From: Isurus oxyrinchus
Taxonomy: Eukaryota
Length of the DNA stretch: 64,000 nt
Reading direction: 5' to 3'
Assembly (NCBI GenBank): GCA_026770705.1
Contig: JANJGN010000038.1
Span: forward strand, 8,928,001-8,992,000
Part shown: in pieces, positions 13,711 to 56,142 of the stretch
Layout: every line of letters starts with the position of its first letter
How positions within the stretch are numbered: the first letter of the stretch is position 1
Translations under genes and position numbers: made by a program
The notes under the pieces: model-generated
What the model was told of the DNA's origin: nothing
Database searches by the model: none
What the model saw: the letters and a program-made list of their open reading frames with translations, nothing else

Positions 13711-14621
13711 TCATCTTTTAAATAATTTAACAAGCAGATTCAATGGGAATTTCACACCATTCTTTAACTCTTCTCTGAACTTACTCTGGGTCCCTGCATA
13801 AATAAACGGATTGATGCAAGAACTCAGGAGCTGAAGCATACGTGCGCTTTCCTCCATAAGAAAATTTGATTCATTGAAATTGGTAGAGTCTGCATAGCTA
13901 AGATTCGCAATTCGGACATAGAGGAAGTTTATAAGTCTTAACAAATGTAACAGGATGAAACTGCCCGAGATACAGAAGAGCAAAACCATGGACTTCCTTC
14001 TTTTCTGCATCTCTGGGTCACTTTGATTCTCTCCATTGCTCTGGATCCGGAGTCTCCTGCGGGCTCGACTGGCCGCTACAATGTGTCTGATGGTCAGAGC
14101 ATTGAGCAGTAAAATAAGGAAGAAGGAGAGGCAAAGGGTTAAAACGGCGATTATGCTTTCATAAGCGACCCATTCAGGTGCCGTGTAAAATATTGATTTT
14201 GAATTGCATTGCCAGGGTATATTGTCAATGATAAAGGCAGGCTCACACATAAAATACAAGGGAATGCTTTTAACACAGTTAAGTACAGAGACAGTTGCTA
14301 TCACCGCAGCCGCCATTTTCTCAGTGCAATATTTAATTTTCAGCTTCTGGCAGCAAATGGCTACAAATCGGTCAAAGGTGAAAGCCACTGTTACCCAGAC
14401 AGAAGAATCGATGACTCCATAATTTAGCACAAGTCTGAGGCTGAAGACCGGAGTGATGGCCAGGAGACTGAACGGGAAATAAATACCTATAATCCGGTTT
14501 AATATCACAACTGTGATCCCGACAAGAAGATCCGTCACGGCCATGGACATCAAGTAGTAAGTGATACATTTGGAGAGACCGCATCTTCCTCGAGTCAGTA
14601 TCACAATCACGACCAGATTAG
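13711..14621 (-). CDS. GPR139/GPR142-like class A orphan GPCR, gene 1, exon 2 (intact; spliced protein ~326 aa)
   Basis: Acceptor ctgtcacAG ahead of 14621, phase 1. Encodes TM1(end)-TM7 with MAVTDLL (TM2), FTFDRFVAIC (DRY-like), CINPFIY (NPxxY) and a helix-8 FR motif. Stop at 13711-13713. Confidence 0.92.
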
Positions 14622-15868
14622 CTGTGACAGCGAAACGCAGCCACCGAATAGCCAATTTTGGGAAAGAAATTTAGAACATAAAATGTTGGAAATTCTCAGT
14701 CAGGCAGCAGTTGAAAAGAGAGGAACAAGTTAGCATGTCAGAAAGATGATCTGGAGGAAAATATCCTAAAACACAGCAATCTGTTCTGTACTATCAGCAA
14801 CACTAAGGGCTAACTCAAGGTGAACATTGAACGTCCTGCATTGTGACTCTGAAATACAGTCAATGTTGTTCTCATTCAACGTTTAGAGACGGGAAAATGT
14901 AACAATACTCTGAAACATTGGAAAATCGAAGGTTAACAAATACATTATAGAGCTTGAAAAAAGTTCAGCAAAAAAAAAGCTACTACTTAACTGAAAAGAA
15001 GATGAAGGGGATGTGATGCATCTGAGTTGTAACAATTCGAAGTTAAAGGAACAAGGCTTCACAGCCACGAGTAAAACTAATCATGCTTACTATGGCTCAG
15101 TTTACAGCAATCTCACTTTTGAGTCAAAAGGTTTAGCGTTCAAGCCCAACTGTTGGACTTCAGCAACGTTGCACTGCCGGATATGCTATATTTCAGCTAA
15201 AACAAAAGACTGAGGACCGGTCGTGAATACAAAATCTTACTTAAGAAATAGCTGTTATTCACATTCCAGCGCAAGGAGCAATATATGCACATGGCAAAGT
15301 GAGGTAATTCAACAGCTGTGTCAATAACACCATAGAGCTACATTTGCAGCGTGATAAATCAGCCATGGTGACAGTGTCAATAATACAATTGATTTACATT
15401 GCACTGTGATATTAGTGTGCTAAATACTTCGCCCACATTAATAATGACAATAACAACATCTAATTACGTTTAGACTGAGAGGCGGCACTGCTAAGTTGGC
15501 AGAAAAGTTTTATTTAAAGAGATGAAACGGCATTGACGAAGCAAACATAGTAATCCCTGAAATGGAAGTAAGTATAGTGGCAATGGGAAGAAACTGTTCT
15601 CGTGAAGGGGAGAAATTGTAGCCTTAAAGTGGAGAAAAGAGACCAGTAATGACCAGTAATATTGCAAGGAAAGGGAAGGTTTAATCTCATTTAAAAGAAG
15701 AATGCACCAAACGTTGGAGATAAGGCTACTGCAAAAAAGGGAAAACATTATAAAAAAACAAATTATCCTGTTAATGGGGTGAATCATAGAGAAGCAGTAC
15801 AGCTAAATTAAAGAAGTGATAGAGTGAAAAATCATTCTGGTAACTGGTAACTAACCCTAATACTTTAC

Positions 15869-15938
15869 CTGGAATACCGATAGCTGCAAGAACAGGATAG
15901 TAAATGGCGAACACCAGACCTTTTGGTATCCCATGCAT
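15869..15938 (-). CDS. GPR139-like GPCR gene 1, exon 1
   Basis: ATG at 15938 (alternative in-frame ATG at 15947), MHGIPKGLVFAIYYPVLAAIGIP, then G|GTAAAG phase-1 donor. Splices in frame to give IGIPANLV, like GPR139 TM1 LGLPANIL. Confidence 0.88.
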
Positions 15939-15989
15939 TTCTCTCATAAGCTCCAAGTGGGCTCTGTGCTACACCGAAAGACTGTTAGA

Positions 15990-16051
15990 TTTATACATGA
16001 TGTCAGACTCTAGGGAGACAATGAGAAGGTTTGGCTTTTTACATTAATTAC
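15990..16051 (-). promoter_or_regulatory. Core promoter module of GPCR gene 1 (homeodomain site, O/E-like site, TATA)
   Basis: Minus strand: GTAATTAATG at 16051, CTCCCTAGAG at 16017, TATAAA at 15995. Same spacing as in genes 2 and 3. Confidence 0.65.
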
Positions 16052-16499
16052 ACTAACTGAAAAAAAACATTTTAGTGCAGCTGCTGCCACGCTCGTGTTT
16101 ATATTTTTGATGGAATGGAATCTGTTTTCAAGGACATTGGCGCGACAGGAGAGTACGGTCCAAGTTGCATTTTTTCCTAAAATTTAAATAACAAGCCAAA
16201 TAAGCCATTGTAATTGTGAAAGTGAGCACTATGCACGAACATCCATGGCTTTAAACCCCGCAAGAAAACATTACAAAGTTCTCACTCTTGATCATTTTTC
16301 AGCCCGTGTGTACATGGATCACGTGTAATGTGGGTCCCTTTTCCTTCTGGAATGAGGAACCAATCAGTAGCCATCCATCATCAGCCTCTCTGCCTGCTTG
16401 GACGTCAACTCACGACGAAAAGTTTCTCAATTAACTCTGTAAATGAAACACCAATGCTATGGGTATTGGCTTGTGTCCTATTTCTGTTTGGCTTTTGGA

Positions 16500-17950: not shown

Positions 17951-19010
17951 GTTTACATTCAGTGTAGAAATGTGCAGCTCGGCATGGTTATATTCACAGT
18001 GCACACGCCTGGTTTGGCACGGTTACTTCCATTGTGGACTAGTTCAATTCAGTTAGTGTAGCCATGTCAATCCTGGCAATAACGAAAGTGCACAGGTGTG
18101 TGAATTTACATTTTGTGTGGCAAGATCCAGTTCAGGACGTGTGTGCTTGGTGCTTTCAGTTTAAGCTCAGTCCACTCACATTCAGAGAAGACAACCTCCT
18201 GCTGAGCATGATTAAATTAATGATGGAGCGCTCCAAATCAACATGGTTATATACCATGTAGAAAGTCCTGTTCAGCTCGTTAGCAATCACTGTTTAGTGG
18301 AAAACCAGTTTAGGAGATTATCACGCTGGTGTGACTGTCCAGTTCAGTAACTCTTTCGAGTACAAACCCATTTCCATCTGTTTCAGATGAAGTTACATTG
18401 TTTCATAGTTTGCCATTGTGAGATTTGAAAAGGAAATTGCATTCACTGCATTCAGGTTAAATTGTGCACAGCTGCACTCAGTACGAACATGCCAATTTCT
18501 ATCCTGTTACACTGATGTACATGGACGACTTTTTGCCCGATTATTATCAACTTTATCCGGTGGAAGACAACTACGTACAATGTGCACAGCCCCGGCTGTG
18601 AACACTTTCTTTCTTGCAGTGAAAAATTTCACTTCAGCGTGATTACATTCCATATAGAATAATCAATTTCATTACTGCTGTATTCGATGGAGACAGGACT
18701 GGTCGAGCATGGTTACGTTTCGTGTAGATTTATGAAAGTCTGCTCGGTGTTAATAAATGTGTACATGGACATTTGCATTCAGACTGGACTGGTTTAGTTC
18801 TGCATTCTTACTTTTAATTTGACCTTCTGTGGTTCACTGTGGTGGACAGTCCCAATGGATCACTGTGAACCTTTTAATTTCCCAGCAGCTATGCTTCGTG
18901 TGCAGATGTCTTGATCAGTGAGGTTACATTCAATTTGCGTAATTGCAGTTCTGTAGCATGATTTTCAGTGCAGACGGATCTCGGCCGGAGAGATTTTATT
19001 CATTGTGATT
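17950..19010 (+). repeat. Degenerate minisatellite, ~32-bp unit
   Basis: Recurrent ggttacattcagtgtagac...gttcagcat-like unit. Reverse-orientation relatives occur at ~27170-27530 and ~30450-30780. Confidence 0.55.
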
Positions 19011-20149
19011 TTCCACGACAAAATCCAGGTCTATTGTTAATGATAAAGGAAGGTTCATAGGCAAAGTACCAGGGGATGAGGAGGTTCTGGAGACTTTGGA
19101 ATTGTCTTCTCCAGAAAACAAGAAACGGCAGGGGCACTAAATATATTCAAGGCATAGTTAGACAAATTATTGATCGACAAGAGAACCAATGGTTACTCAG
19201 TCTGACAGGAAAATGGAGTTAAGGCCAGGATTACATTAGTCATGAACTCCGATGGGTTTCACACAGTGTTGACAACAAAATGCATCTTAGGAGAATTGAA
19301 TGGAGCAGTTAACAGCAGCAACAGAGTTAAAAGTGCTCTTCATAACAGTTAATCGATTGCAACTATTTGATAAATTTACGAATAAACATGTGGAGGGTAA
19401 ACAAAAATATGGAAAAATACATACCACTATCATTTACAGTTTCACGCCAATTAGAAAATATGCTGATCTGTAATGGTTAAGCTCAAATCGCCACAAAAAA
19501 ACACCCTCCCACAAATTATATTCCTTCTCCCACAGTTTGCTCTTTCAGTTATCCAACAACAATCCTTCGCAATGTCCTCTTCTTATCTAAAATATTTACT
19601 GTATCACTGGCTTATTTTTGGCAGCACTTTGGATACAAAACTTACTGTTGCTTCATTTTGAACCTTCTAAATGCTGTGAAAAGTTGAGACCCAAATACAA
19701 ATCTTGCGAATCAGCTGTCACCCCCTGTCAATTGAACTGTATTCACATTACCGATCAACAAATTAAATGAGCTTTGTACATATCACAGCCATCGCGCGTT
19801 AAATTTATGTCGATATCAATTTAAATTAACATCTAGGCATGTAAAATAAATGACCTGTTTAACTAAGAAATTCTGGTTTTAATGACATTACTGAAGTAAC
19901 AATTAAACTACATTGTGCAGCATTTGTATCATTTCCAAAACGTCCGTCAACACAAGACACAGAAATCGCGGACATACATAAAACAATCTTGAATGTTTTG
20001 CTGTTGGAGGACAGCCAAACATCCGGAGAAGCTAAACAGTAAACATCTGACCCTCAAGGCTTCACAGTTGAACAAAGATTGAAAGGACTTAATTCCGGAA
20101 AAAGAAACGTAGAATTCAGATTCAGAATGTCTCCGTTTCGTATTTTGAG

Positions 20150-20303
20150 TGGCTCAGAAAACTGACTGGAAAATAAACAGCCGTAAACCGGCTTAATATC
20201 AGTGTAATGATAATAACATGGAGATCTGTCACCGCCATGGACTCTGCGTATCTGCAAAGACCACATCTTCCTCTGGAACGGATCACGATAGTCAGCTAGT
20301 TAG
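20150..20303 (-). pseudogene. Truncated GPR139-like exon-2 pseudogene fragment
   Basis: (CT)n tract plus cttacAG acceptor, then AN*LTIVIRSRGRCGLCRYA-ESMAVTDLHVIIITLILSRFTAVYFPVSFLS. Has an in-frame stop, a small deletion, and is truncated after TM2/ECL1. Confidence 0.8.
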
Positions 20304-20310
20304 CTGTAAG

Positions 20311-20352
20311 GGAGAGAGCGAGAGAGAGAGAGAGAGAGAAAGGAGAGAGAAG
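20311..20352. repeat. (GA)n microsatellite
   Basis: gagagagcgagagagagagagagagaga... Confidence 0.9.
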
Positions 20353-23099
20353 GGAAAAATTAGTTTTGGAACTCCAAGCTACAACATCCGTTTGGCGGGA
20401 GAATGGTATGGCACACGGACCATCAATACTTCATTCAACGCTGGAACTGATTAATTTGCCAATGTATTAATGCTAGTCCATTTTTTGATTTATATTGTCC
20501 CAAATAGAGTGGAAGTCGGAATATAAAATGACACAAAACACTTACTTTCCGTTTCATGTAAATTTTATGTAATCTAGAAATAGAGGGATTTGATCTTCAC
20601 TAACATATTAAATTGACATAAGGACAACCTGAAAATGGCATTAAAATACAGGTCAAAGCTCAATACATTTATTCATTTATAAATACAGTAAATAATAACG
20701 TTATGAAACGTTAAACCGCTATAATAATGAAACCAATCGAATCACAGGAAATAAGTTATGGGTAATAAGTGATTCCTATTAAATATCAGAAGGAACCAAG
20801 GTACGATGAAAAAGAAAAATTGAGCGAACACCATTGATTCAATTTGGGCTTTGCCTTTGTGGAAACTAGTCAAAGCGCATCAAAGGCTTTTTTGCAGTTC
20901 AGTGATTGCTGTAGTGGCAGATTAGGTCTCGCAGCAGTAGTGAGGATTTTCAACTGATATAGCAGAAAGACCTCGGTCTAGAGCCTCGAAAGAAGGACGA
21001 CAGAGTAGAATTCCTCAGCGGCATGGAGCTGGGCTACAGACACGCGATCGGAAGTAGGGAACAAACACAGGGCTTTCCGAACGAACACTGAGATTTCAAA
21101 ATTTAGCTCCGCTAAATAATGTGGCTACGAGTATAATGAATTCCGGCTCCGAAGGGTATCACACAGCCTTGAAAACAAAGTGCACTTCTAAGGAGAATTG
21201 AATGCGGCTGTTAACCGCAGCAACGGAGTTAAAAATGGTGGTCATCACAGGTCATCGACTGCAATGATTGCTGTTAAAGTTACGCATTGCAAATCGAACA
21301 CCAATAAACATGTGGCGGGTAAACAAAAACATGGAAAATACTTACCACTATCATTTATAGTTTCACGCTAATTAGAAAATATGGTGACGTGCAATGGTTA
21401 AACATAAAGCGCCAGAGAAAAACAGCCTTCCCCAAATGGTATTCTTTCTCCCACAGTTTGCTCATTCAGTTATCCAACAACAACCCTTCGCAATGTCCTG
21501 TCCTTCTGTAAACTATTTACTGTACCACATGGCTTATTTTCGGCAGCAATTTGGATTCGAAACTTTCTGTTGCTTCATTTTGATCCTTCTAAATGCGGTG
21601 AAAAGCTGAGGCCCACATACAAATCCTGCGAATCGGCTGTCACTCCCTGACAATTCAACTGTAATTGCATGATCCATCAACAAATTAGATGAGCTTTGTA
21701 CACACCGCAGCCATCGTGAGTTAAATTTACATCGATATCAATGTGAATTAACAACTAAGCATGTAAAATAAATGACCCATTTAATGAAGAAATTGAGGAG
21801 TAAATTACAATTTGAATTAACAGTTTAACTATATTATGCAGCATCTGTATCATTGCCAATAATCCTGTCAACGCAAGAAACAGAACGCCTGGGAACTCAT
21901 AAATCAATCTTAAATGTCTTGCCATTGGAGCACAGCCAAAAACCCGTAGAAGCTATATAGTAAACATCTGACCCTCAAGGATTCACAGTTTAGCAAATGT
22001 TGATAAGAACTAATTCTGGAGAAAAATATAGAATACAACGAACAATGCTAGATAGTACAGTAAGCTACAGAGACAAGACGCATGCCCCTGTGAAAGCCAT
22101 TACCCAGACACAAAACTGCAGAGACATAGCTCAGCCATCTGTAGGATAAAAAGGGTTGAGTTATGAGAGAATTCCATTTAAAAGTTAAGAAAAATGTACA
22201 CTTTACGGTGAAGAAATTATACTAGATTTTAAGAATAACTTCTTCAAATCATTATTTGTTTGAATATCCAGATTGTTCAATAAAGTGGATTTATAATCTT
22301 ATGCTTTCTTACATAGCATTGCTAGGTTATATTCGGTGATATAGTATTGATATACATATGAGTTGTAGCCTCATACTGAATTCCTCACAAACCCACATAT
22401 AAGTAACGATATCATAGAAATCTTAAGTTTCCTTTCTAAGGGCGGATATTGGTAAACTTTTAAAGAGTTTTTTCTTTCTGTAATATACCTGCAGTAATGT
22501 TCTACCCTGGCATAATTTTGTTGGTTCGACAACTCCGAGGAGCCGTCTGAGTTGTTTTGAATTTGTACAGAGCAGTTGTTGGGGGCGGAGAGTGGCGGTG
22601 GGGGAGTAAAGCAGTCGGATCAATGTTACATTTCGAAAAGACCATAGGGAGGAATAATTGATTAGGTTCGATACATACCGATAATGAGAGAGCGGGGTCA
22701 TGGGAATATTCTTGAATGAATATTGTGCTGCAATGCGAATGATGGGCAGTGCCAATTATTTTGGATAGATACTAGCCTATAGTGAGAAGAAAGAAAATTG
22801 TGAATTATTTTAGATTGGTACAGTCTTATTGTGAGAATAAAACACCAGGGTGAAATATCTCGGATTGCCAGAGGCTTACACTTAGAAAATAGGGCAGAGT
22901 GAATTATTCCAGGTTCGTACCAGGTTGAAGCGAATTGCTAGGCAATGTGAAATGTTTTGAACTGAGACAGGCATGTAATGAGAGAGCCGAGCAGTATGAA
23001 TGCCCCTTGGATTGATACAGGATTGGAGTGAAAAGGCAACAATGTGTGAATTTCAAGGATTCTTTTACTGTAGGGATATAGACGAAACAGTGAATGACC

Positions 23100-23295
23100 A
23101 CACACCCCCCACCCCCTCTCTCTCTATCTCTCCGCCCCCCACATACACACCTTAAACCAGCTTATATTTCAACTCTTTCTTGGACTCAAAATCAAGTTCT
23201 GTCGAAGGGTCATGAGGACTTGAAACGTCAACTCTTTTCTTCTCCACCGATGCTGCCAGACCTGCTGAGTTTTTCCAGGTAATTCTGTTTTTGTA
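23100..23295 (+). mobile_element. Penelope-like terminal repeat fragment with minimal hammerhead-like motif
   Basis: Near-identical to 41365-41470 (caagttctgtcgaagggtcatgaggact.gaaa.gtcaactcttttcttctcc.ccgatgctgccagacctgctgagtttttccagg). Confidence 0.7.
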
Positions 23296-27639: not shown

Positions 27640-29258
27640 ATGTCGATGAAATCAGTGCGAGAGTGAGAGAGGGATATTGGCTTAGAAAATCTAGATGTAG
27701 ATGCAACCTGGGTGGAGCTAAGAAGCAACAATGAGTGGAAAAGATCACTTATCTGTAGACCTCCAGACAGCAGTGTCGACATAGGGGACGGCATAAAATA
27801 GGAATTTGGATGTGCATGTAACAATGGTGTTCCAGAAATCATGGATGACTTTTAGCTACATATAGAGTGTCCAAACCAAATTAGCAATTACAATGGCGAA
27901 TGGATTCCTGTCGTGAGTACGAAATGTTTTTATTTCAGACTCGTATGTTGAGGAACAGACTGGGGATCAGGCTATCCTAGATTTGGTATAGTGAAATGAG
28001 AAGCACTTAAATCATAATCTTGTTGTGTTGGGTCCTTTGGGGAACAGTGACCAACATGATAGAATTCTTCATTAGAATGGGAAGTGAAGTAGTCTGGTCT
28101 GAAACGAGGGTGCTAAATCTAACAAAGGAATCGACAAAGTAGGAGATTTGAGTTGGCTAAGATCGATTGGAGTACTTTATTAAAAGGAAAGATGGTGTGT
28201 AGACAACGTCCAATGATTAACGAAAGTGTGCATACATTTCAAAAGTTATACTTTATTTTCTGGCCCAAAAGAACAGGACAGGAAAAACGGCCCCACCATG
28301 GGTAACAAAATAAATTAAGGATAGCTTTAGATCCAAAGAGGAGTCCTGTGAAGTTGCTAGAAAAATTAACAAGCCTAAGGATTGGGAACAGTTTAGAACT
28401 CAGCAAAGGACGACCAAGAGTTCGAATAAGGGGGGAAAATATTGGATGAGGGTAAACTTGCAAGTAACATAAAAGCGGTCATTAAAAGCATCTATAAATA
28501 TTTTTATTAAAAAACCTCACAGTCTGAAACGGGAGAATTTATAATAGAACAGTTACTTTAGCTCTGTCTTCACTTAGGGAGACATAAATAACTTCACAGA
28601 AATAGGAAGGAACGTCGGGTCTATTGAGAAGGAAGAATTCAACGAAATTAATGTTACAAACACAATTGGGCTGGAGAAATTAATCGGACTGAAAGCCAAT
28701 CAATCCCCAAGGCCTGATAATATACATCTTGGGGTACTAAAGGAGGTGGCCATGTAAATAGTGAGTGTAGTGGTTGTCATCTTCCAAAATTATGTAGATT
28801 CTGCAACAGTGCCGGCAGAATGCAAGGTGTTAAATATAACCCCGCTATTTTAAAAAAGAGTGAGGGAGAAAACAGTGAATTACAGACCAGTCAGCCGAAC
28901 CTCAATAGTAGGGAAAATGCTAGAGTCTATTGTACAGTATGTGATAACAGGACATTTTAAAAATATAAATGGGATGAGACAAAGTCAACATGTATCCATC
29001 AGGGGAACTCATGTTTAACAAACCTACTGGAGTTTTTAAGGACGTAACCTGCAATAAAGATAAGAAAGAACCAGTGGCTGTGATGTATTTGGAATATCAG
29101 AAAGCCTTTGACAAAGACCCACATAAAAGGTTAGCGTGCAAAATTAAAGACAGGGAAGAAAGCAGGAATAAGTGGGTCTTCTTTGGCGTGGCAGGAGGTG
29201 ACGAGTGGACTAGCAGGGATCAGTGCTTTGGCCCGAGCTATTTACAATATATATAAAT

Positions 29259-29301
<43 letters not shown>

Positions 29302-30250
29302 ATATATATATATATATATCAATGATTTGCATGACGCAACAACAGGCAATATTTCCAATTTTTGATGACACGAAACTTGGTGAGGATGTGAGCGATGAGG
29401 CAAGTGTTCAGACGCTTCAAGGCGACTTACGCAGGTTGAGTGATTGGGAAAATAAGTGTGAGGTTATCTGCTATGGCAGGAAAAGCAGATTGGCAGAATA
29501 TTATTTAACTGGTGATACATTTGGAAATGTTGATGTGCAAAGGGACCGAGATGCCCTTACGCAGCAATCACTGAAACCAGGCATGCAGGTGCAGCAAGCA
29601 GTTAAGGACGTAAATGGTACGTTGACCTTTATTGCGACAGGATTTGAGAGCAGCAGCAACGATGTCTTACTGCAGCTGTGCATGGTCATTGTGAGATCAC
29701 ACCTGGAGTAGAGTGTGCAGTTCTGGTCTCCTTACCTAAGAAAGGATATATTTGCTGTAGAGGGAGTTCAGCAAAGGTCCGCCACGCTGATGTCTGGGCT
29801 GGTAGAATTGTCTATGAGGAGAGATTGGGCCGGCTAGTCCTTTATTTATTGGAGCTCAGAAGAATGAGAGGCGATCGCATTGAAACATATGAAACTCTGA
29901 CAGGGATGTACAGGCTGGTGCAGGGATGATATTTCCTCTGGCTCGGGCGTCTAGAACAAGGGGTCACAGACTCAGGATACGGGGTAGACCATTTAGGACT
30001 GAAATGACGAGAAACGTCTTCAATCAGAAGGTGGCGAACCTGCGGAATTCTCTAGCACAGAAAGCTGTGGAGGTCAAGTCACTGGATATATTTAAGAAGT
30101 AAATAAATAGACTTCTAGCCTTCGAATGCATCAAGGGGTATGGGGAGAATGCCTGACTAAGGCGTTGAGATAGAGGAACAGCCGTCATCAAACTGAACGG
30201 CGGAGCAAGCTCGAAGGGCTCGAAGGAGTAATCCTACTCCTATTTTCAAT
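27640..30250 (+). mobile_element. Degenerate CR1-type LINE (endonuclease-RT ORF2 remnant)
   Basis: Fragments NYRPVS.TS.VGKMLE, YLEYQKAFDKDPH, FDDTKLG, LQGDL.RL..W, LVRSHLEY.VQFWSP and LELRRMRGD.IE.Y, with many frameshifts. Interrupted by (TA)n. Confidence 0.9.
29245..29319. repeat. (TA)n microsatellite
   Basis: Long atatatat tract inside the LINE. Confidence 0.9.
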
Positions 30251-31193
30251 ATTTCGGTGGATAATTTTTTCCGCACACTGAAGAAAGCATGAGGAATTAA
30301 CTATCTGCACAAGATTTATAACACTGCTTCACATGTGCGCATTGAAGATAGCAGTTAAAATGGGGCCTGTCCATATTCATTGCAAGATGACTGAACTGGG
30401 CCTTTGCAGACTTAGTGCAGCCGTGCATAATCTCGCCTGGCGCTACGGAAAGCGATTTACGGGAAAAGGACGTGCACATTTACCCTTCCTTATCCGTCAT
30501 GAATTAATGTAACGTGGCAGAAATGGAGCCTCGACACATCACATAACCATACCGAACTGGAACGGTCCACATTAACTAGAATCGTGCTCAACTGGACCTC
30601 CGTTTACGGAGTTTAAGCGTACTCTCTATAATTATGCAGAATTAATGCATAAGCGCTTGACTGCATCTGACCAAGTAAAACGTAGCCGTTCACAGCTACA
30701 CAGCTATGCACAATCACTACAACTGGATTTGACATGTCTGCAATGAATTTAACTGATATGGAATAATCCACACTGCAAGAAGCCGTGAAGAAGGTTTGAG
30801 TACTTGAAAGCTAAGTAAAGGTGATGAGTTGAACATTTCCATACCAAATGCGAACAGAATGAGACAGCAAATGCTGGAAATACGCAATAGACCGTTCAGC
30901 ATCTGTGCAGAGAAAACGGTAAAAGGTTCAGATCCATGACTTTACATCGAAGTTGGGGAGTAGGTAGCAATGGAAGAGTTCTTGTTTTCACTATAGCGGC
31001 GGGAAACGGTTGTGGTAAAGGACAGATGATAAAGAAACATCAATGTAGGTTTGTGTTAATGTGGAAGACAGAAGGGCACTTTGTGAGAATGTTCTTTCAG
31101 AACAATGTCAGTGAGCTTGAAGAGCCTTCTACTCCGTCAAAATAAAAATAATTTCCTGTCAGCTGCAGCACGAGCATCTTTGTTTCAATTAGC

Positions 31194-31255
31194 GTAATTA
31201 TTGCAAAAGATCAAAGCGTCTAATTGTCTCCCTGGAGGCTGGCTTGAGATATATC
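31194..31255 (+). promoter_or_regulatory. Core promoter module of GPCR gene 2
   Basis: GTAATTATTG at 31194, TAATTG at 31221, CTCCCTGGAG at 31228, TATATC at 31250. ATG lies 113 nt after the first motif, as in gene 1. Confidence 0.65.
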
Positions 31256-31306: not shown

Positions 31307-33675
31307 ATGCACGGATTGCCGAAAGGTCTTATTTTCATCATATATTATCCCGTCATTGCAGCGATCGGGATTGCAGGTTAAGTATTTTGGTTTGCTATGC
31401 TATTGAAATCAATGTTTAATCACTTCTCTTTGGTTTGCTTTCATTTTAGTGAATCATTGTTCGTATTTAGGAGCTTTGCTTCTACATGGTACGATATTCG
31501 TTCTCCCATTAAACAGAACAATCTATCAACATTACGGCGACATCGTCCCACTTTATCACCCTCGATAATGTGACTTTTTTCCACTTCAAGGGAAATGCTT
31601 AATTTAATTCTCCATTTTATCAACACAATTGTTTTCTTTTACTGACATGATTAGTCGTCATCACATGCCGAGTCGCTCAAGTTTGACTGTGTCATTTCTT
31701 CCGTTGGACATAGTTTCTCCCCAATGCAAGAATAATAATTCAGCAGTAACAATGCACTATCTTCCCTGAGCTAGTAACATTTAGTCAGTTTAATTGGACA
31801 CTTTCATCTGTTAACTGCCACCGTTCGAGGTTTTAGATGTTCTTTTATTTTATTCTTGGTATTTTTCAAAAAGCGTAATGTATAACGCTGTTACCACTGA
31901 GGAAAGGTTTTTCTATTGTTTCAACGGCATTGTCACCGTGGGTGAATTATTACAGAGGAATTGTATTTGTATTATGCATTATCTCATTCTTTTCCCTTTA
32001 ACATTTCGCTGGAATATGAACAGTATTTATCTGATAAATCTGTGCTGAATATTAAATGACTGGCCCAGGGTTTCTTGCCTTAGCGGAAACCTGGCACCCT
32101 GGGCGGAGAGGAATTCTCAGGGAGCTGAAGTTGGGCTTGAATCCAGGACATTTTGATTCTAAAGCTTGACGTCTTTCAATTTAACAGCAACTGGACATTA
32201 AAATGTGTGTGGATTTCCTCCCTGCTGTGAAGGACAGTTGTGTTCACTGCACGTCATCATAACTCATGAGTTTTAGTTACCTTTTATTTCCTTCCAAAGG
32301 AATTTTTTTTTTCATTTTAGCTGTTCTCATTTGCTGGATTATGCCCACAAAAGTAACACTTTGTATTTAATTCCATTCAACGCCATCTACTCAGTTTCTG
32401 TCAAATTCTTAGGTCGATTTAATATTGCGTACCTTTCTGTTTCCAATGTCCTAGCCTGTTCTTCTCTAAACAGCAAGCAGGAGGATATTTGATCGTTTTT
32501 CATTTAACTGAGTAACAATGCAGCAATTTGAATATTCACTATAGGGCCGAGCCTGCATTCTTCCTGTAAATCAGCACAGTATTGACAATTTGCTGCATTT
32601 TGGAAAGAGTCTTTCTTTCTCCACTGGAGCATATAAGTCATAGGACTGAAATGGGAACATTGCTCTCTTTTCATGACCAATGCTGTATTTGTGAGTTTAT
32701 CAACATTTCCTGTTCTATATTCATTTGTCCCCACCGCAAACCTACTGGTTATATTCCTCTGTCACAGCTAATCTGGCAGTAATTGTGATCCTGTCTCGAG
32801 GAAGATGCGGTCTCACTGGACGTATCACATACTACCTGATGTCCATGGCCGTGACGGATCTCCTGATCATGATCCTTGCTGTGATGTTAAACCGGATTGT
32901 AGGTACATATTTCCCATTCAGTTTCCTCTCCATCACTCCGGCCTTTGCTCTTAGTCTTGTGTTCATATATGGCGTCAGGGATTCTTCTGTCTGGGTGACA
33001 GTTGCTTTCACCTTTCATCGATTTGTAGCCATTTGTTGTCAGAAGCTGAAAACCAAATATTGCACCAAGAAATCAGCAGCTGTGGTCATAGGAACTGTCT
33101 GCGTTGTGCATTGTGCTAAAAAAATACCCTTGTACTTTGCTTGTGAACCTTCTGTTATCACGGACAATACACCCTGGTACTGCAAACTAAAGCCAATATA
33201 TTATTTGTCACCCGGATGGGTGGCATATGACAGCATAAATGCCGTTTTAACCCCTTGTCTCCCATTCGTTCTTATTTTGCTGCTCAATGTTCTGACGGTC
33301 AGGCACATTGTTGTGGCCAGTCGAGCCCGCAGAAGACTCCGAGCGCACAGCAAGAGCGAGAAACAAAGCGACCCAGAGATGGAGAAGAGGAGAAAGTCCA
33401 TCGTTTTACTCTTTGCCATCTCGGGAAGTTTCATCCTGTTATATTTCCTCGCTCTTATAACTTTCCTCTACGCACGAATTGCCAGCGTTAGTTATTTCGA
33501 TGGCTCGAATTTCAATCAATCAAATGTTATACTGGAGGAATGCGGACTTATGCTGCAGCTTTTAAGTTCCTGCATCAACCCCTTTATTTAGGCAGGTACC
33601 CAGAGTAAATTCAGAAAGGAGTTAAAGAATGGTGTGAAATATCCATTGAGTCTGATTGTTAATTTTTTTAAATGA
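31307..33675 (+). pseudogene. GPR139-like GPCR gene 2 (exon 1 31307-31376, exon 2 32768-33675); premature stop, probable pseudogene
   Basis: Exon 1 MHGLPKGLIFIIYYPVIAAIGIA G|GT; exon 2 acceptor gtcacAG|. Close paralog of gene 1, but the NPxxY Tyr codon is TAG (33589-33591) and DRF is changed to HRF. The frame continues AGTQSKFRKELKNGVKYPL... to the ancestral TGA at 33673-33675. Confidence 0.85.
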
Positions 33676-35035: not shown

Positions 35036-35039
35036 AACA

Positions 35040-40190: not shown

Positions 40191-40204
40191 ATAGCTAAGT
40201 GATG

Positions 40205-41345
40205 ATAAGAAATTGCAACAGCAGTAAGCCATTAGGCCGCTCAAGCCTGCCCCGCCATTCAATAACATCATGGCTGATCTGCACCAGGCCTCAAATCCTC
40301 TTTACTGACAGCTCATCATGAAGCTCAACTCACGATATTTCAAAAATCTATCCATCTCTTCTTTAAATACCTTCAGAGATCAAGCCTCCACAACTCTCTG
40401 GGGTAGAGAATTCCAGACATTCAATACTCTCAGAGAGAAGATATTCCTTCGCAACTCATTTTGTATGTGTGGCCCCTTATTATGTAACTATGTCCCCTTG
40501 CTCGAGATTCCCCCACTAAAGCGAACATTTTCTCAACATCTACCTGTCAAGCAACCCCTCCCCTCAGGATTCTGTTCGTCTCAATAAGATCATTCCTCAT
40601 TCTTCGAAGGGCTAATAAATAAAGTCCTAATGTGTTTAGTCGTTCCTGATAAGTCAACTCCATCATCCCAGGAATCAGCCTAACGAATCCCCTTTGAACT
40701 GCATCTGATGCCAATATATCAATTCTTAAATACAGGGGCCGAAAGCGTTCACAGCACTCCAGGTGGGGCCCCACCGAATCCTGCATATTTGTAACAAGAC
40801 CTCTCTATTTTTTAAACTGTAACCCCCTAGCAACACAGACCAAAATGCCATTTGCCTTCTTAATTACTTGTTACATTTGCATGTTAACGTTTTGTGCTTC
40901 GTACACAGGAACAATCAGAGCCTGCACGTTTTTGAAGTCTCTCTCCATTTTAATAATAGTCTGTCTTTTGATTCTTCCTACAAAAGTGAATGACCTCACA
41001 CTTTCCAGCATTAAACTCCATCTGCCAAGTGTTTTTGCTCACTCACTCAACCTATCTACAACACCTTTTACATTCCTTATGTCCTTTCACAACATGTCTT
41101 CTCACCTATTGCTGTAGCATCAGCAAATTTGGATACATCACACTCTGTCCGCTCCTCCAAGTCATTGCAATAGCTAATAAATAGTTGAGGTGCTAGGACT
41201 GATACTGTGGCACTCCATTTGTTGCGTCTTTCCAACGCTTCTGAAAAGGACCCATTAATCCAGACTCTTTGTCTCCTCTCTGTTATCCAATCCTCAGTCC
41301 ATGCTACTACATTTCTCTCAATACCACGGGCTCTTAACTTGTGCA
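40205..41345 (-). mobile_element. Degenerate CR1-type LINE 3' portion
   Basis: ORFs 41077-41346(-) KLRARGI...WITERRQRVWINGSFS...SKFADAT and 40547-40786(-) PHLECC...YQERLNTLGLY.L..RR.R.DLIE. Confidence 0.85.
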
Positions 41346-41349
41346 ATAA

Positions 41350-41470
41350 GTTCTGTCAAGTTCCCTCAAGTTCTGTCGAAGGGTCATGAGGACTCGAAAT
41401 GTCAACTCTTTTCTTCTCCGCCGATGCTGCCAGACCTGCTGAGTTTTTCCAGGTAATTCTGTTTTTGTTT
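41350..41470 (+). mobile_element. Penelope-like terminal fragment (second copy of 23190-23295)
   Basis: Near-identical to 23190-23295. Flanked by a possible duplication ttaacttgt (41334-41342 and 41471-41479). Confidence 0.65.
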
Positions 41471-47965: not shown

Positions 47966-48089
47966 CTGTTCAGGACTTCCCTCCTCTCATGGCTGCATTT
48001 TTTTTAACCGCTGTCATTGCACATGGGATTTGGGAGTGGCTTATTGATGCAATATAATGGGGATAAAACAGTAAGGCAGACTATTATTT

Positions 48090-48950
48090 AGAAATCTGCC
48101 ATTCTCTGCTTTAAACATACTCAATGATTGTACTTCCACAACTCTCCGGGATGCAGAAATACAAACATTCGCAAACCACTGAGTAAAAAACAATTCTCCT
48201 CATGTCAGTCCTAGTGGCTTTACCCTTATTTTGAAATTGTGTCCCCTGTTTCTAGATTCCCCGACCAGGGGAAACATCTGACCTTCATTTACACTTTCTT
48301 CCATTCAGGTGTTTTGTTTGTTATAATGAGATCTTTTTGCTCATGTTTGGAAACTCTGGAGAATACAGGTCCAGTGTCCCCAATCCTTCTTCACAGGACA
48401 GTCACGCCATCCCTGATGCAAATCTGGTGAGCCTTCGATTCACTCCCTCAATAACATTGACTCCCTTCCGAATGTAAGGGGGCCACACCTGCACATTGTA
48501 CCCCAGGGGTGGCCTAACCAAGATTATATACAAAGGAAATGAGAATTCACTATGGCTGTATTCAAATCCACTTGTGAGAGAAGCTAACATTCTTTTCGCC
48601 TTCCTAAATGCTTCATATGTATGCCAGGTTTCAGAGACTTATTGATGAGGGTACACAGGCCCCCTTGTACAGCTACATTTTCCAGGCTCTCACGTTTTAT
48701 GAAATAATCTGCACCTCTGTTGATCCTACCAAGCTGGTTAACCTCGCATTCTTCCACGTTAAATTTCATCTTTCCTGTTCTGTCCCCCTCACCAAGTCTG
48801 TCCAAATCGCCTTGAAACCGTTTTCCACCTTCCTCACAATACACGTTCCCACCAAGCTTTGTGTCATCCTCGAACTTGGAAATATTACATTTGGCGCTCA
48901 TATCCAAATCATTCATGTGTTGTGAACAGCTGGCTCTCAAGTAGTGAGCC
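48090..48950 (-). mobile_element. Degenerate CR1-type LINE 3' portion
   Basis: ORF 48584-48940(-) ISKFEDDTKLGG...FQGDLDRL...MKFNVEECEV and 48402-48590(-) LYIILVRPPLGYNVQVWPPY. Confidence 0.85.
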
Positions 48951-49879
48951 TTCCAATTCCCAATGGCCAGATGCTGACAAAGTTTGATATTTCACTCTAT
49001 ACTCCATCACCCCCACCACCCCCACCCCCACAACAAAAAACACACACGTAGGTCGCCGGCGCCCCTCACCCCACACCTCACACGTTGAAATGACATGCTT
49101 CAGTTACTGCTGCAGCAGCAGGAGTCCTTTGGATCACGTAAGAGTGTCACAACACTGATGGAAGCCCTTGAAGCATTAGTCTGTTTCTCGCTACACAAAA
49201 GTAGCGAGGGCTGCTGATTATTCCCAGCATTGCTGTTTTTTATTTCAGTTCCGAGCACATTGGCCCCCCCTCTCTCTCCTCTCCTGAACATACTTTTTCC
49301 AGATGAGTTCAGGGGACATTTGAATTGACGAATTTCACTGGAACATAACTTGTGCAGTGGAAATAAATCTTTATTTGAAACGAGGAGACTTCCCGCTCCG
49401 AGATACTGTGACTGTTCAGCTCTAAAAACATTGGAATAAAATCACAGAAAGATTTTGAAAAGCTGCAATCACTGACTTTCGAACCTCTGAAACCCACCCT
49501 CCCATCTGCAGGTTGGTCTGAAATGTTTTGAACAAGATCTCCCTGTGATGCTGGAGACACTGCAGCTTGTCCGCCCCTGGACTGTCACCTGCCCAAGTGG
49601 CCTTATCCTCCAAAGCCCCTTTGGATAATGACATGGAACTCGAGCCTGGTGGGTGGGAATTTCACACACCAGGCCCAAGGACAACAGGAGAGTTGGAATA
49701 GCCAGGAAACCAGCAGGACAAACAGGACTGAGGTAAATTACTTCCCAAATGCACCGTTTCTGTTAGTCATTGAATCCTGGCGGTGAAAGATGAAAACTGG
49801 CCTCACCCTGTGCTCATCACCGAGGTGAAGAGATTGGGAATAAAACAGGGTCAACTCGTATTGATAATGGATATTCTTG

Positions 49880-50781
49880 TCACTGTTTAATACATTTAAA
49901 AATTACAGAAAAGGGATATTTCACCACATTCTTCAGCTCATTTCTGAATTGAGTCTGGGTCACTGCATAAATGGCCGTGTTAGTGCAACAACTCAGGAGC
50001 TGAAATATAAATCCCAGTTCCTGCACAAACCTAGGAAGGTATACAGGAATAGCATCTAACACATATAGCCTATTACAAACAGAATTTATCATAAAAACTA
50101 ACCACAACAGGATAAAATTCCCCGATATAGAAAACAGTAAAATGATGGATTTCCTGCGTTTCTCCATCTGTGGGTCCCTGGGTCTCTCCCCACTGCAGTG
50201 AGCCCGGAGTCTCCTGCGGGCTCTGCTCGACACTAAAATATATCTGACAGTTAAAGCGTTCAACATCAAAATCAAAACAAATGGCACAAATGGTGTTAAA
50301 ATATAATGAAGACATTCGATTGCTGCCCACATTGATGAGAATTCAGCATCCGTCACTAATGTGCAAAACCAAGGAGCATTGGAAAGTGAATATTGACCTA
50401 CATACATAAAGTACCAGAATGAATCCTTCACACAGAATAGCAGACTGACTGTTCCGAGAACCACAGCCGCCGTATGCTGGGTGCAATATTTTGTTTTCAA
50501 CTTCTGGGAACAAATAGCTAGAAATCTATCAAAGGTGAAAGAGACTGTGAACCAGACAGAACAATCTGTGGCTGCATAAAGCAGGACTGCATGGATATTA
50601 CACACTTTAAACCTCCACATGAACTGAAACTGAGCCCAGTAAAGAATAGCAATTTGCCTGAATATGAGATCAAGGATAACGACCAGTAGATCCGCGGTTG
50701 CCATGGACACCAGGTAAAGGGAAACACATTTTGAGAGACCGCACCTTCCCCGAGACAGTGTCACAATAGTCAGTATGTTCA
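49880..50781 (-). CDS. GPR139/GPR142-like class A GPCR, gene 3, exon 2 (intact; spliced protein ~332 aa)
   Basis: Acceptor ttccttacAG ahead of 50781, phase 1. Encodes VNILTIVTLSRGRCGLSKC, MATADLL, FTFDRFLAIC, CTNTAIY, QFRNEL. Stop at 49880-49882. More divergent subfamily than genes 1 and 2. Confidence 0.92.
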
Positions 50782-52084
50782 CTGTAAGGAAGAGAAAGGC
50801 AGGATAGTTATTGTTTAACTTAGAGCAAATGTTACAGACTGATGGAGTGACATTTGAACAGAGTTATCCAAGGTCAGAATCTAATTACTTTACCAGTGTT
50901 TGAGCTTTACGCTGGAGGGAGTGTTTCGAGTTAAACACCATCCTGTTGTAGCAGGAAACCAAATCCTGCAGCAGGTCTCATCGCCACTTCCCTAAATTAT
51001 TCATGGAATTCGGAGTGAAAATCATTCACCCCATTACTAGTCCTGCTCAATATCCCATGAACATGCTGCAAACTGCATCACAACGATATGTAAGAAGGGC
51101 TGTGATTTGTACTGAAGGAAAATGGTTCATTTATTTATGAGAAGACATTTGAGTGGAACATTAAGGTTGTGTAAAGAAGTAAATACAGATTTGAATTCAG
51201 AAATTGTATTTCAAATCAGGATGTCCAAATGTGCCTTCCTGATAATTATTGCCTTCGCCAAAAGGCACAATGAACGCTTAGACTGTATCCCAGTAACAAA
51301 TAGACTCTCGAAAAGAAATAAAGAACAGGGAGGTAAATGGATCGCTAGACTGAAGAAAATAAATTAGAGATTGAATCAGAGCTGGCCAACACGAAGGAAC
51401 AGCAGAGAGTGGCAGCACCCAAAATTCAGGCTGGCTAGCAGGAGAGAATTTACCAATGGATCTAATGTCTGTGTTTTGGGCCAGGAATTAAATGGGCCAG
51501 TGGTTGGGAAATGAAGTTGTTACATAAGAATGCAAGAACTAGGAGCAAGAGCAAGCCATATTTCTCTTTGGTCAACTCTAATGTTCATTAAACCCATGGC
51601 CATTCTTCGAATTCTACTATCCAAATCTATCCCCATTTATCTTAATGGCCTTAGAGCACAAGAATCTACCGACCAACAGCCGTCGAGAGTTAATAATTCC
51701 GACGTTTCTCCACTTTCTGAGTGAAGAAGATTCTCTTCATCTCAATTCCAAATGGCCAACATTTTATCTCAGGGATCGAGTTCTCGACTCCCCACCTAAG
51801 GGAAACATTCTCTCAGCATCCATGCTATGAGGACACTAAATTATTTTCTATGACTCGATGAGATAATCACACATCCTCTAAATTTAAGAAGATGCATGTC
51901 AAATTTGATTGATTGATTGATTACTTAAGTATATTTTTCCTTAGGCAAGAAGGCCAAAACTGTACACATTAATCGATATGTTTTCTCACCAATCACATGC
52001 ATAATTCTATCAAAAGTTCCTTACTCGAATACAGGGAAGACTGCCATTTATTATCCTATTCACTTGCTATATTGCTGTATCCTA

Positions 52085-53310
52085 ACCTCATTACAGCTTT
52101 GTTTCAAACATGGAAAAAGGAGCTGAACTCCCGGGGGGAGGTGAGAGCGGCTGCCCTTGACATCAAGGCAACATTTGGCAGAGTGTGGCATCAAGGGCCC
52201 CTAGCAAACCTGGAGTCAATGGGAATCAGGGGGGAAATCTCTGCTGCTTCGAACCATACCTAGCAGAAAGGATGATGGTTGTGTTTGTTGGGGGTCGATC
52301 ATCTCAGCGCTAGGACTTCACTGCAGCATTCCTTCAGGGTACTGTCCTCGGCCCAACCATCTTCAGCTGCTTCATCAATGACCTTCCTTCCATCACATAG
52401 TCAGAAGTGGGATGTTCGCTACTGATTTCACAATGTTCAGCGCCATTAATGACTCCTCAGGTACTGAAGTAGCCCATGCTCAAATGCAGCAAGAGCTGGA
52501 CAATTAGCAGGCTTGCGCTGACATGTGGCAAGTATCTTGTGCACCGCTCAAGTGTCAGGCAATGACCATCTCCAACAAGGGAGAAACCAATCATCGCCCT
52601 TTGTCATTCAATGGCATTAACATCACTGAATCCCCCACTATCAAATCCTGGGGTTTACTATTGACCAGAAACGGAACTGAACAAGCCATATAAATACTAT
52701 GGCTACAAGAGCAGATTAGAGGCAAGGAATAGTGCGACGTGTAACTCACCTCCTCACCGCCAAAGCCTGTCCACCATCTGCAAGGCACAAGTCAGGAGTG
52801 TAGTGGAATGCTCCTCGCTTGCTTGGATGGGCGCAGCTCCCAGAACGCTCAAGAAGCTTGACACCATTCAGGGCAATGCATCTCGCTGGATTGGTAGCAC
52901 ATCCAAAAATATTTACACACTCCACCACTGTTGCATAGTAGCACCAGTGGGTGCCATCTACAAGATGAACTGCAGGAACTCATCAAGGCTCTTTCAGCTG
53001 CACGTTCAAACCCCGACCACTACCATCTAGAAGGAGAAGGGGAGCAGACAGATGTGAACACCACCAAACGGAAGTTCCCCTTCAAGTCACTCACCATTTT
53101 GACCTGGAAATATATCGCCGTTCCTTCTCTGTCGCTGGGCCAAAATCCTGGAATTCCCTTCAGAACAGCACTCTGGGTGCGCCTACACCCCGAAGACTAT
53201 AGCAGTTCAAGAAGGCAGCTCAGCACCACCTTCACAAAGGCAACTAGTGATGGGTAATAAATTCTGGCCCAGCCAACGAAGCCCATTTCCCATGAATGGA
53301 TAATAATAAC
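52085..53310 (+). mobile_element. L2/CR1-group LINE 3' half (RT remnant) in the intron of GPCR gene 3
   Basis: ALDIKATFGRVWHQG, QG.VLGP.IFSCFINDL, MECSSLAWMGAAP motifs, with stops and frameshifts. The 3' tail is shared with the SINE family. Confidence 0.85.
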
Positions 53311-56045
53311 ACATATTGCGTGTTAGCTTTCTCTAGATTGTGTACCCGAGCAGCCAAATTATGAAAATTTACAATTTTTACCAGTTTCTCGACTGTTTAA
53401 ACGCTGGATGAGGATAGAATGAAACTCGTCTGTGTTATTATCTCAGGGAAACTGAAGATTCTGGTGCAATATTAACACAGGGCTTTGATGCATGTTTAAA
53501 TTAATATGTCAGATAATTCATAAAATTAATGGTCCTGGCCTCCTATTTGGTGGCGATACTCGGATAATCAGCGCTGATTGTAAATGTAATTAAAGCCGTA
53601 TCTTTTTCCACCCTTGCAGCTTGTTTTTCTTGCCTCCATAGCGGGGTGGGGGAAATGAGCTGTGTACGAGGTGCGTAGATGGCGGGTGGTCAGCAGTTGG
53701 GATGGGGATGGGTGAGTAGTTAATGTGCTTTGCAGTCGGTTGGGGGTTGAATGGACGGGCGATGGCTAGTGAGAGCTGTGCAAGTGGATCGAGGGGAAGG
53801 CAATCGAGTCAGATTAGATATTCTGGGGTCAGTAGTTGGGGGTGTTGTGGGTTGTTGTGTGTGGGATGAATGTGGGAGTTCTGTAGGTGGGGGTTGGGCG
53901 TGCATGGGCTTTGCTTGAAAGTTATTCACTGACACATGCTAGAAATTAATAGCGGGAAAATACTACGCCAAGCATCTGTCACACAACAGGCACAACAGTC
54001 CAACACTAAAGTCAGTATTGGAGTCATTGTTAGAGGGGCCTGGGCAATACAAATCTGCCCATCTGAAGTTTAAAGTTCATGGGAAATTACCATGCATGCT
54101 CCTGGATCAAGATTTCAGATCGGTCCTGATATGCAGAGCGGCAGACATTGCAATATTCACCACTGTTGGCATCAGGAGTTCCGGTTAATGATATAGTCAG
54201 TATTAATTTCACGGCAATGGACTCCAGACACCAGCTGCAGATAGAGGGAAATTACACAAGAGCGAAATGGAGATCAGGTCAAAAAAGGCTGGCTTAGGGT
54301 GAATAACAATAAAGAACACATTTTAAGAATTATCTTAAAGGATGATAAGTTTGTGGCGAGGACAAAGGATTTCGGAGGAAATTCAGAACATGAAACTCTT
54401 AATACTTCATTGTGGTCACCCATGCCAAAGGCTGCAGACATGTCGACAAAAGGGAAGAGAGGCAGCTCGACATTAGCAGAGTCACATAAGATATAATTTG
54501 TGCCTTTGCTAAGGACGGTGTAAGAGTTGTAATAAGGTAGAAAAATGGTTAGAAAGATTTAAGCATGGTGTCCCTGGAAGATGGGGCAGAAACGTGGGGG
54601 GTAGCAGCAGGGACAAGGAATTTGTAGAGGAAAGAGAGGTTAGAGATGGAGTGTTTGCTTACAAAGACTGAGGCAACAGGGGTTGCTTATTTACAAGGGC
54701 AGGGGTAATGACTACAGAATGGAGCAGCAAAGAACAGTGGCTAAGCAGATGGAACTATTAACTATATCAGCAACTGAGGAACATGATGAGGAAGTTCGGT
54801 GTTCAGCAGTTTGGTGGGAGTACGGTGAACCAGTCCCCACCAGCAGCCACCCCTCCGCCCACACCCTACACCATGCCTCCCACCAACCCAATCAAACGCC
54901 TGGAAATCTCACATCTGAAACATAATGGAATGCTCACTACTCATCAGTATGGTTATCAGAGCAACACCCAATAAGCAGAATCACCTTCAATAATGGAATA
55001 GATTTTCCATCAGTGTCCGTCCATCATTATACTTGCTATTTCTCCACCTCCACCTCTGTGGATGCAGGAAGAATGTCTACAGAATCAACTACAACAACAC
55101 ACCGGGGCTACTTCGACAGCACGTACCAGGACAGCAAAATGCAGAAGGCGTGCAATGCCGTGAGATTCACCTTCTCTAACGCACCATCCTGACTTGGAAC
55201 GGTAACATCTCCCTTCATCAGTGTTCCGGAATTCCCTAACAGCAGGTAGGAGCACAGTCAGCAGAGGGAATACTTCAGTTCAGCAAGAAGACTCAGCACC
55301 AACTTCTCAGCTCACTTCCAGATGGGTAATAAATGGAAGTTTGTCACAAGCATCCATTTCCCAAGGACACATTTTGAAAAAAAAACTTTGAGAGGGGGAT
55401 AATGATTTGCAGCTCTAAATAACGTCATGCAGAGACAAGGGAAGGAAATTAAGTCTGTGGACAGAAATGGGAACGGAGCCAATTGTTGGTGAGGGGAGCA
55501 AATATTGTTGAACAATTATTACATTTTAAATTCTCTCCTAAATATCTAAATTTGGTTATTGTTAGGCAAAGCGGGAGATGGTGGAATGGAATTTGCCTGG
55601 AGCTGAATCATTATGTGAGATCTTCCCTCGTTCCTGTCTGCCCTAATTTCCGCAGATCAGTGCAAATTACTATCTGCATCGCACTGCAAAACCAATACCT
55701 GCGCAACATATTCTGCTCAGATATTGGGGTTCAGTTTAAACAGCAGACTGCAGCTGTTCAATAGCTATAATTCATCACTAATATTTATTGCATAAAATAT
55801 TATACCAGCCAAATTCTGAAGAAAAAAATCATTTGAAGCAAGTCTTGAGATATACAAACGGTCCAATGAACTGTGAACAGTGAATCAGCAACTGCTGAAA
55901 TGCTACTTCACAGAAGCACAGGGCATTACATGTCACAGGACACAAGAATTACAGAGAATAAAATTAATTAACTTACGTTAAGGGCAAGGACAACAAACAT
56001 GATGAAAGATGTTTTATAAAATAAGTTTCTAAAATAATCACTCAC

Positions 56046-56142
56046 CAGGAATGCCAACAGCAGCGAGGAGCGGATAGTAAATCCTTTGCAAATCATAAAT
56101 CACCCAGACAATCCGAAGTTCAGTTGGAATTTCAAAGAACAT
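56046..56142 (-). CDS. GPR139-like GPCR gene 3, exon 1
   Basis: First in-frame ATG at 56142: MFFEIPTELRIVWVIYDLQRIYYPLLAAVGIP, then G|GTGAG phase-1 donor at the same codon position as genes 1 and 2. Confidence 0.82.

Follow-up and report, generated by a model that had tools for sequence, protein, structure and literature searches.

Receptor Genes in the Window

The 64,000 nt of Isurus oxyrinchus DNA analyzed here (assembly GCA_026770705.1, contig JANJGN010000038.1, positions 8,928,001 to 8,992,000; hereafter the window) carries members of a real, very large and mislabelled receptor family. Six-frame translation and tblastn detected two intact two-exon genes for class A G protein-coupled receptors (GPCRs), designated A and C, together with a nonsense-bearing copy (B) and a fragment (D). 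This agrees with the first-pass annotation, which had described two intact genes, one nonsense copy and at least one fragment in mixed orientation. The features are listed below by window position (TM, transmembrane helix; ECL and ICL, extracellular and intracellular loop; residue numbers of the type N1.50 are motif-anchored).

13711–14621, minus strand: gene A exon 2; protein of 329 aa without internal stop
15869–15947, minus strand: gene A exon 1, from ATG to a phase-1 GT donor
About 18994–19077, minus strand: fragment D, TM4-ECL2 remnant (weak match)
19247–20103: stretch between the two D pieces, 857 bases, 81% like 21147–22025
About 20146–20307, minus strand: fragment D, exon 2 start with acceptor, in-frame stop and deletion
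31307–31376, plus strand: gene B exon 1
32768–33675, plus strand: gene B exon 2; pseudogene, with TAG at 33589–33591 (Tyr7.53)
49880–50781, minus strand: gene C exon 2; intact protein of 332 aa
56046–56142, minus strand: gene C exon 1

The introns of A, B and C (1,247, 1,391 and 5,264 bases) are of the GT-AG type, lie in phase 1 and interrupt a common TM1 codon. The same intron had been ascribed to all four loci but holds for three, as in fragment D the phase-1 acceptor alone was seen and a search for exon 1 did not find one. The N-termini are very short, as claimed, with 24–33 residues ahead of N1.50 in A, B and C. At the protein level A and B share 72% identity, and C is 48% identical to either. 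All three score above the cut-off for Pfam PF00001 (7tm_1), and the best matches of a predicted model (predicted local distance difference test score, pLDDT, 90) are class A structures. The class A hallmarks N1.50, D2.50, D/E-R3.50, N7.49 and Y7.53 occur in 48–49 of 49 diverse paralogs, a set obtained by reducing 117 distinct open copies to those at <90% identity, with broken copies left out. The family is one of class A (rhodopsin-like) GPCRs.

A- and B-type receptors have Phe at 3.25, where Cys is found in 47 of the 49 paralogs, so they likely lack the disulfide between TM3 and ECL2. Gene A carries Ser in place of the Pro 5.50 of most paralogs; its frame is nevertheless open. In gene B, the TAG occupies the tyrosine codon of the NPFIY motif, and HRF replaces DRF. 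This gene had been taken for a nonsense allele, but its stop recurs in 4 of 21 B-type copies, while 6 of the 21 are open, and it is better called a dead paralog. In some C-type genes (loci L097, L101, L134, L141, L149 and L150) the N-terminus is lengthened by a larger first exon, in which a short peptide (DQNLRTIDWNV-like) is repeated in tandem.

Family Size and Range

Copies were counted with a pattern of 23 letters over the DRF region, designed on the 49 paralogs and catching 27 of them. It gave 861 + 868 = 1,729 exact matches in the 4.98 Gb assembly, a count that haplotype duplicates may inflate, at most by about half, and the reversed control gave none. Open copies at the 30 best A-type loci yielded 27 distinct sequences. 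Sampling the first 100 places at intervals of five gave 20 matches, all of which fitted the family profile, in a sample biased toward large contigs and copies with an intact motif. Exon 2 was open in 13 of them (no fewer than 82 codons ahead of the motif and 205 beyond it); a stricter open-frame flag gave 9 of 20, because small indels shift the index. Initial counts of 7,829 and 7,985 do not represent copy numbers and were disregarded. Family copies in the assembly number well over a thousand, and the birth-and-death cluster with many paralogs proposed in the first-pass annotation, which had named a low genome-wide count as contrary evidence, is borne out, open and broken copies being mixed. 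The window and its surroundings (264 kb in total) contain 10 family loci, five of them open.

Among public proteins, 1,947 clusters matched the family at E ≤ 0.001. The best 120 of the 1,947 were all from sharks, nearly all of them automatically named 'probable G-protein coupled receptor 139', and nine of ten divergent representatives that were looked up came from a shark, skate, stingray or chimaera. An atlas search, too, gave auto-named clusters only. The range of the family is the cartilaginous fishes (sharks, skate, ray and chimaera). No description of it was found in the literature searched, with subscription papers and supplements outside the coverage, and the available part of PMC10620051 does not describe it.

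A Repeated Block with a V Segment

The receptor genes share the window with one element of a different kind:

63551–63897, plus strand: V segment, likely of T-cell receptor (TCR) alpha/delta type, with an open V-set exon; part of the duplicated block

Its recombination signal has a 23 spacer, with CACCACG at 63859–63865 and ACAAAAACT at 63889–63897. The best single-domain matches include TCR alpha chains, and multi-domain antibody constructs score higher. Searches of the assembly returned 131 matches for A (130 scored candidates), the same number for C and 150 for the V segment. Among these matches, the full A-B-C-V set, in the order, orientation and spacing of the window, surrounds 16 of 39 A-type copies, and a C-type gene lies 8–16 kb from 19 of 30 close V copies. 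A block of about 50 kb (A-B-C and a leaderless TCR-type V), of which the window is one copy, was seen in complete form 16 times.

A block that includes one dead receptor and a V segment lacking its leader would be expected if the family were mostly passengers, that is, if runaway segmental duplication had multiplied a small core of functional orphan receptors, with most copies adding nothing. Some identical copies may, in addition, be assembly duplicates. Passenger duplication accounts for part of the copy number, but the expansion exists in other sharks and rays too, and as an explanation of the family it appears unlikely, particularly when the coding sequences are considered (see later).

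The V segment could also point to an immune-cell repertoire, in which the receptors would sense chemoattractants or microbial peptides, like the FPR or MRGPR clusters, and be co-regulated with antigen-receptor loci. The V segment travels with the block at the distances given above, and family genes are interleaved with V segments at 32.8–35.7 Mb of contig C26. Against co-regulation of this kind, none of the 10 close V copies read has an intact leader, no canonical J-type signal occurs in the 264 kb around and including the window, and many family clusters are on other contigs. Proximity to V segments says little, because mammalian olfactory receptor (OR) genes are reported to flank the TRA/D locus as well (PMC2275272).

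Relationship to GPR139 and GPR142

[quoted passage not shown] The GPR139 label of the first-pass annotation is misleading, as A and C are 29–34% identical to the GPR139 of the same genome, a single match on contig C15. A 55% relative of the latter, likely GPR142, is on contig C22, and a second GPR139 pattern match, on C12, has an in-frame stop. Orthologs of GPR139 were judged by 70–96% identity across vertebrates and a single copy; the low identity and the separate gene on C15 rule out that the family members are GPR139 orthologs.

In the main tree (34 rows, a hand-picked subset), 20 cartilaginous-fish rows form a clade with support of 95/86, and its sister is an orphan receptor of amphibians and sturgeon (100/98). 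Next outward are orphans of coelacanth, silverside and contig C6 (98/96). GPR139 and GPR142 make up a clade of their own (100/99), and the family falls outside it. A grouping of the family with GPR139 is rejected by the approximately unbiased (AU) test (p-AU 1.3e-5), and a looser clade of family, salamander, GPR139 and GPR142 survives (p-AU 0.072); in an earlier quick tree of 54 rows the salamander fell within an unresolved family node. Since a position outside the GPR139/142 group had been named beforehand as evidence against the proposed cluster, the phylogeny tells in part against the first-pass annotation.

The C6 sequence (C6:157839161–157840015, L075) is a third orphan, GPR139-like but belonging neither to the family nor to GPR139/142. 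A phase-1 acceptor ahead of N1.50 is common to the family, GPR139, GPR142 and the C6 orphan (acceptor side read), and this supports common descent of the family with GPR139/142. Each species shows a single cluster of the sister orphan (20 amphibian rows, one sturgeon row), with rows auto-labelled 'probable GPR139' (P0235 from Pleurodeles, P0297 from Xenopus tropicalis and P0313 from Acipenser). The sister orphan resembles the family in having Cys 3.25 and N5.58 but, apart from its single cluster per species, differs in retaining DRY and Pro 6.50 and in its identity of 31–34% to family members. Other orphans beside GPR139/142, namely GPR210A/B and a third subtype, were reported from coelacanth, gar and teleosts by Rinne et al. 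2019 (PMC6504862), the available part of which names no cartilaginous fish and no expansion. The Latimeria and Odontesthes proteins that adjoin the family in the tree may be GPR210 subtypes; these candidate coelacanth and teleost proteins fall outside the family clade.

The agonist pocket of GPR139 is reported to involve D84, E108, F109, H187, W241, R244 and N271 (PMC12775434, PMC7318219). Among the 49 paralogs its polar residues are mostly replaced, the equivalents of E108, R244 and N271 being mostly missing: position 3.32 is mostly Leu/Ile, 6.51 is Arg in 2 of 49 and the N271 position is Asn in 4 of 49. The aromatic pocket floor is partly retained, with Tyr 3.33 in 35, His at the H187 position in 22 and Trp 6.48 in 35 of the 49. 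The family is thus like GPR139/GPR142 in its 7tm_1 fold, its two-exon layout with the phase-1 acceptor, N5.58 and part of the aromatic floor, and unlike them in lacking Pro 6.50, in having DRF for DRY and in its more than a thousand copies; the Cys 3.25 of 47 of the 49 paralogs is not found in GPR139.

Such likenesses invite an explanation in terms of endogenous peptide or metabolite receptors of brain, gut or endocrine cells, as GPR139 and GPR142 are, that diversified for internal signaling. GPR139 is the nearest solved sequence, a fold search matches GPR139 and peptide receptors about equally, and amphibian species each retain one conserved sister orphan. A host-encoded set of ligands, however, does not explain more than 1,000 pocket variants under constant gain and loss, nor are the polar pocket residues of GPR139 retained, and an endogenous role of this kind is considered very unlikely.

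Selection on the Coding Sequence

The 49 paralogs have a median identity of 51%, and their overall ratio of nonsynonymous to synonymous substitution (dN/dS) is 0.39, indicating purifying selection. Our own codon likelihoods agree with those of IQ-TREE, and the helix regions, taken from the motif-anchored numbering, are consistent with the helices of the predicted model. The outer face of the receptor has a dN/dS of 0.57 versus 0.34 for the inner face, a difference reached by none of 285 circular shifts. For the helix halves the values are 0.28 (inner) and 0.52 (outer), for ICL1-3 0.30–0.39, for ECL1 0.37, ECL2 0.71 and ECL3 0.95, and for helix 8 plus tail 0.53. The 27 pocket positions stand at 0.61 versus 0.34 for the other helix positions, and selection on the diversified pocket ranges from relaxed to weakly positive and is not strongly so. 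Within it, an acidic residue (D/E) is retained at 3.37 in 41 and at 5.39 in 42 of the 49 paralogs, and neighboring positions vary. A variable ligand face over a constant signaling face, as first proposed, is therefore upheld. Two of its details required correction: the conserved motifs of the intracellular loops are present, but the strongest constraint is on the inner helix halves, and the divergence ascribed to the extracellular loops applies to ECL2 and ECL3 but not to ECL1.

The coding sequences also bear on the passenger explanation. Thirty A copies have 2 stops versus 10–13 expected (P ≤ 0.002), 19 C copies have 1 versus 4–6 (weak depletion) and 21 B copies have 8 versus 5–6 (no depletion), the choice of best-scoring copies slightly favoring depletion. 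Copies of A diverge less at codon positions 1+2 (0.033) than in their 3' flanks (0.050). Like the purifying selection on the 49 paralogs, these results argue against copies that mostly add nothing. In favor of the passenger explanation, the dN/dS of recent copies (A 0.44, C 0.64) is inseparable from that of the dead B copies (0.55; 21 of the 25 listed). Comparing recent copies with dN/dS = 1 does not count as support for function here, as the dead B copies also give 0.55, and no weight is placed on the posterior 'selected' sites of recent A and C copies, the tests not being significant.

Promoter Elements

Of 58 family loci of ten kb each, 46 yielded an exon 1; these and the three window genes were thinned to a set of 32 promoters. 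The elements of the window genes include matches to a published homeodomain plus Olf/Ebf (O/E) composite:

15989–16083, minus strand: gene A promoter, with E-box 16078–16083, TAATTA 16045–16051 and TATA 15989–15996
16008–16025, minus strand: gene A homeodomain+O/E-like element, 2 mismatches to the composite
31160–31255, plus strand: gene B promoter, with E-box, TAATTA and TATA-like box 31248–31255
31220–31237, plus strand: gene B homeodomain+O/E-like element, 1 mismatch to the composite
56233–56295, minus strand: gene C promoter, with TAATTA 56289–56295 and TATA-like box 56233–56240
56251–56269, minus strand: gene C homeodomain+O/E-like element, 1 mismatch to the composite

The Lhx2-Ebf composite pattern was taken from PMC11643329, and mouse OR promoters are reported to be enriched for Lhx2 and Ebf sites (PMC5608512). 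Across the 32 promoters, TAATTA (14 versus a shuffle mean of 3.1), the O/E half-site (9 versus 1.6), TATA (20 versus 4.6) and the E-box CAGCTG (11 versus 2.1) exceed shuffled sequences, and RUNX, ETS and CRE motifs show no enrichment over them. The composite, with at most one mismatch and ahead of a TATA-like box, is found in 18 of 32 promoters, in 4 of 32 introns and, on average, in 7.1 shuffled promoters (maximum 12). The spacing of 12 bases from element to TATA is identical in 12 of 32 promoters, those of B and C in the window included, and a fixed layout of homeodomain, O/E-like and TATA sites is seen in 14 of 16 A/B-type promoters. The enriched E-box would fit the immune-cell repertoire as well, Ebf and E-proteins being B-cell factors, but RUNX and ETS sites do not follow the same pattern. 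The promoter motif favors a sensory over an immune role, and the latter is regarded as quite improbable.

A Putative Chemosensory Repertoire

We lean, by a modest degree, toward the family being a chemosensory, and most probably olfactory, receptor repertoire. In such a system, Lhx2-type and Ebf-type factors would switch on each gene in scattered sensory neurons, and the receptors would bind differing small waterborne ligands, probably with a basic group (amines, amino acids or short peptides). A basic group is proposed because the acidic residues at 3.37 and 5.39 are mostly retained while neighboring pocket positions vary. Signals would leave by one common G-protein route, via the conserved DRF, N5.58 and NxxxY core and a basic ICL3. 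Copies are born by segmental duplication and many of them die, selection holding reading frames open in lineages A and C but not B.

The OR, TAAR, V1R/ORA and V2R/OlfC families are similar in their clustered birth-and-death, short N-terminus and variable pocket; mouse OR loci also have Lhx2/Ebf-type promoter motifs, and mammalian ORs have TCR V segments nearby. Unlike OR, TAAR, V1R and V2R genes, the family belongs to a different receptor lineage and its coding region is split by an intron in TM1. Despite the renown of sharks for their sense of smell, very few olfactory receptor genes are reported from them: 4–9 each of OR, TAAR and V1R, with 34 V2R in catshark (PMC10116579).

A number of observations weigh against an olfactory role. 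Positive selection is weak: the class with dN/dS > 1 has a weight of 5% in the 49-paralog set, with four confident sites, three of them in ECL2, and in recent copies it is not significant (A p = 0.11, C p = 0.45). Gene conversion may affect these site tests. Recent copies are near neutral at the amino acid level, given how close the dead B ratio lies to those of A and C, and large segmental duplications have carried much of the local cluster along as a passenger. The composite is a loose pattern, the 32 promoters are homologous and hence not independent, and the scan windows and TATA rule were chosen after the sequences were seen; 14 of the 32 fail the composite rule, that of window gene A (2 mismatches) among them. 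A matrix from the A/B-type promoters placed 16 held-out promoters modestly above controls (p = 0.022 versus downstream DNA). Ebf and E-box sites also suit the B-cell program, in which Ebf and E-proteins act. The mouse composite is reported to mark enhancers and to be depleted from OR promoters (PMC5608512, PMC11643329), and catshark olfactory neurons are reported to be all microvillous and V2R-dominated (PMC10116579). The variable-over-constant pattern, from which a sensory or immune repertoire had first been proposed, is present but is not specific to such receptors, so that proposal stands in part.

Seven of eight sequencing runs guessed to be RNA, with tissue unrecorded, gave short, low-depth paralog contigs and heavy cover of an intronic repeat, with no exon 1–exon 2 joint among the joints listed. 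The one recorded RNA run matching the family is a coral metatranscriptome (share 0.07), and the available main text of a catshark tissue atlas does not mention the family.

The chemosensory reading can be stated more boldly: cartilaginous fishes would possess, beyond the few dozen V2Rs credited with their sense of smell, a further olfactory family of about a thousand or more intact genes, derived from an orphan GPCR that remained a single gene in bony vertebrates, each promoter bearing an Lhx2-Ebf composite. This version is plausible but somewhat doubtful; if true, a receptor repertoire of mammalian size would have been invented independently, with gene choice run by the same machinery. A chemosensory role would alter the tally of vertebrate chemoreceptors, and an immune one would mean an innate receptor repertoire new to science adjoining a TCR V array. 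Either way, the family, mis-annotated as 'probable GPR139', may rank with the largest vertebrate expansions of GPCRs.

Other Features of the Locus

Remnants of LINE-type (long interspersed nuclear element) reverse transcriptase were recognized from translations at window positions 28900–29900, 35400–35900, 41000–41400, 48600–49000 and 51800–53400. They sit between and inside the genes, and one occupies part of the gene C intron. Just before the window, at about 8,901,700–8,926,500 of the contig C38 (L200-L202), is a head-to-tail array of about eight units with a period of 3.3 kb. Most units have an open frame of 926 codons, and the array looks like a retroelement, perhaps a Penelope-like one.

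A second, broken V segment lies about 3 kb past the window end (C38:8994629). About 30 V copies with 88–100% identity are spread over contigs C38, C42, C100, C131, C146, C76, C101, C387, C126, C49 and C26, and a very large V-segment array at 23–40 Mb of C26 holds most of the distant V matches.

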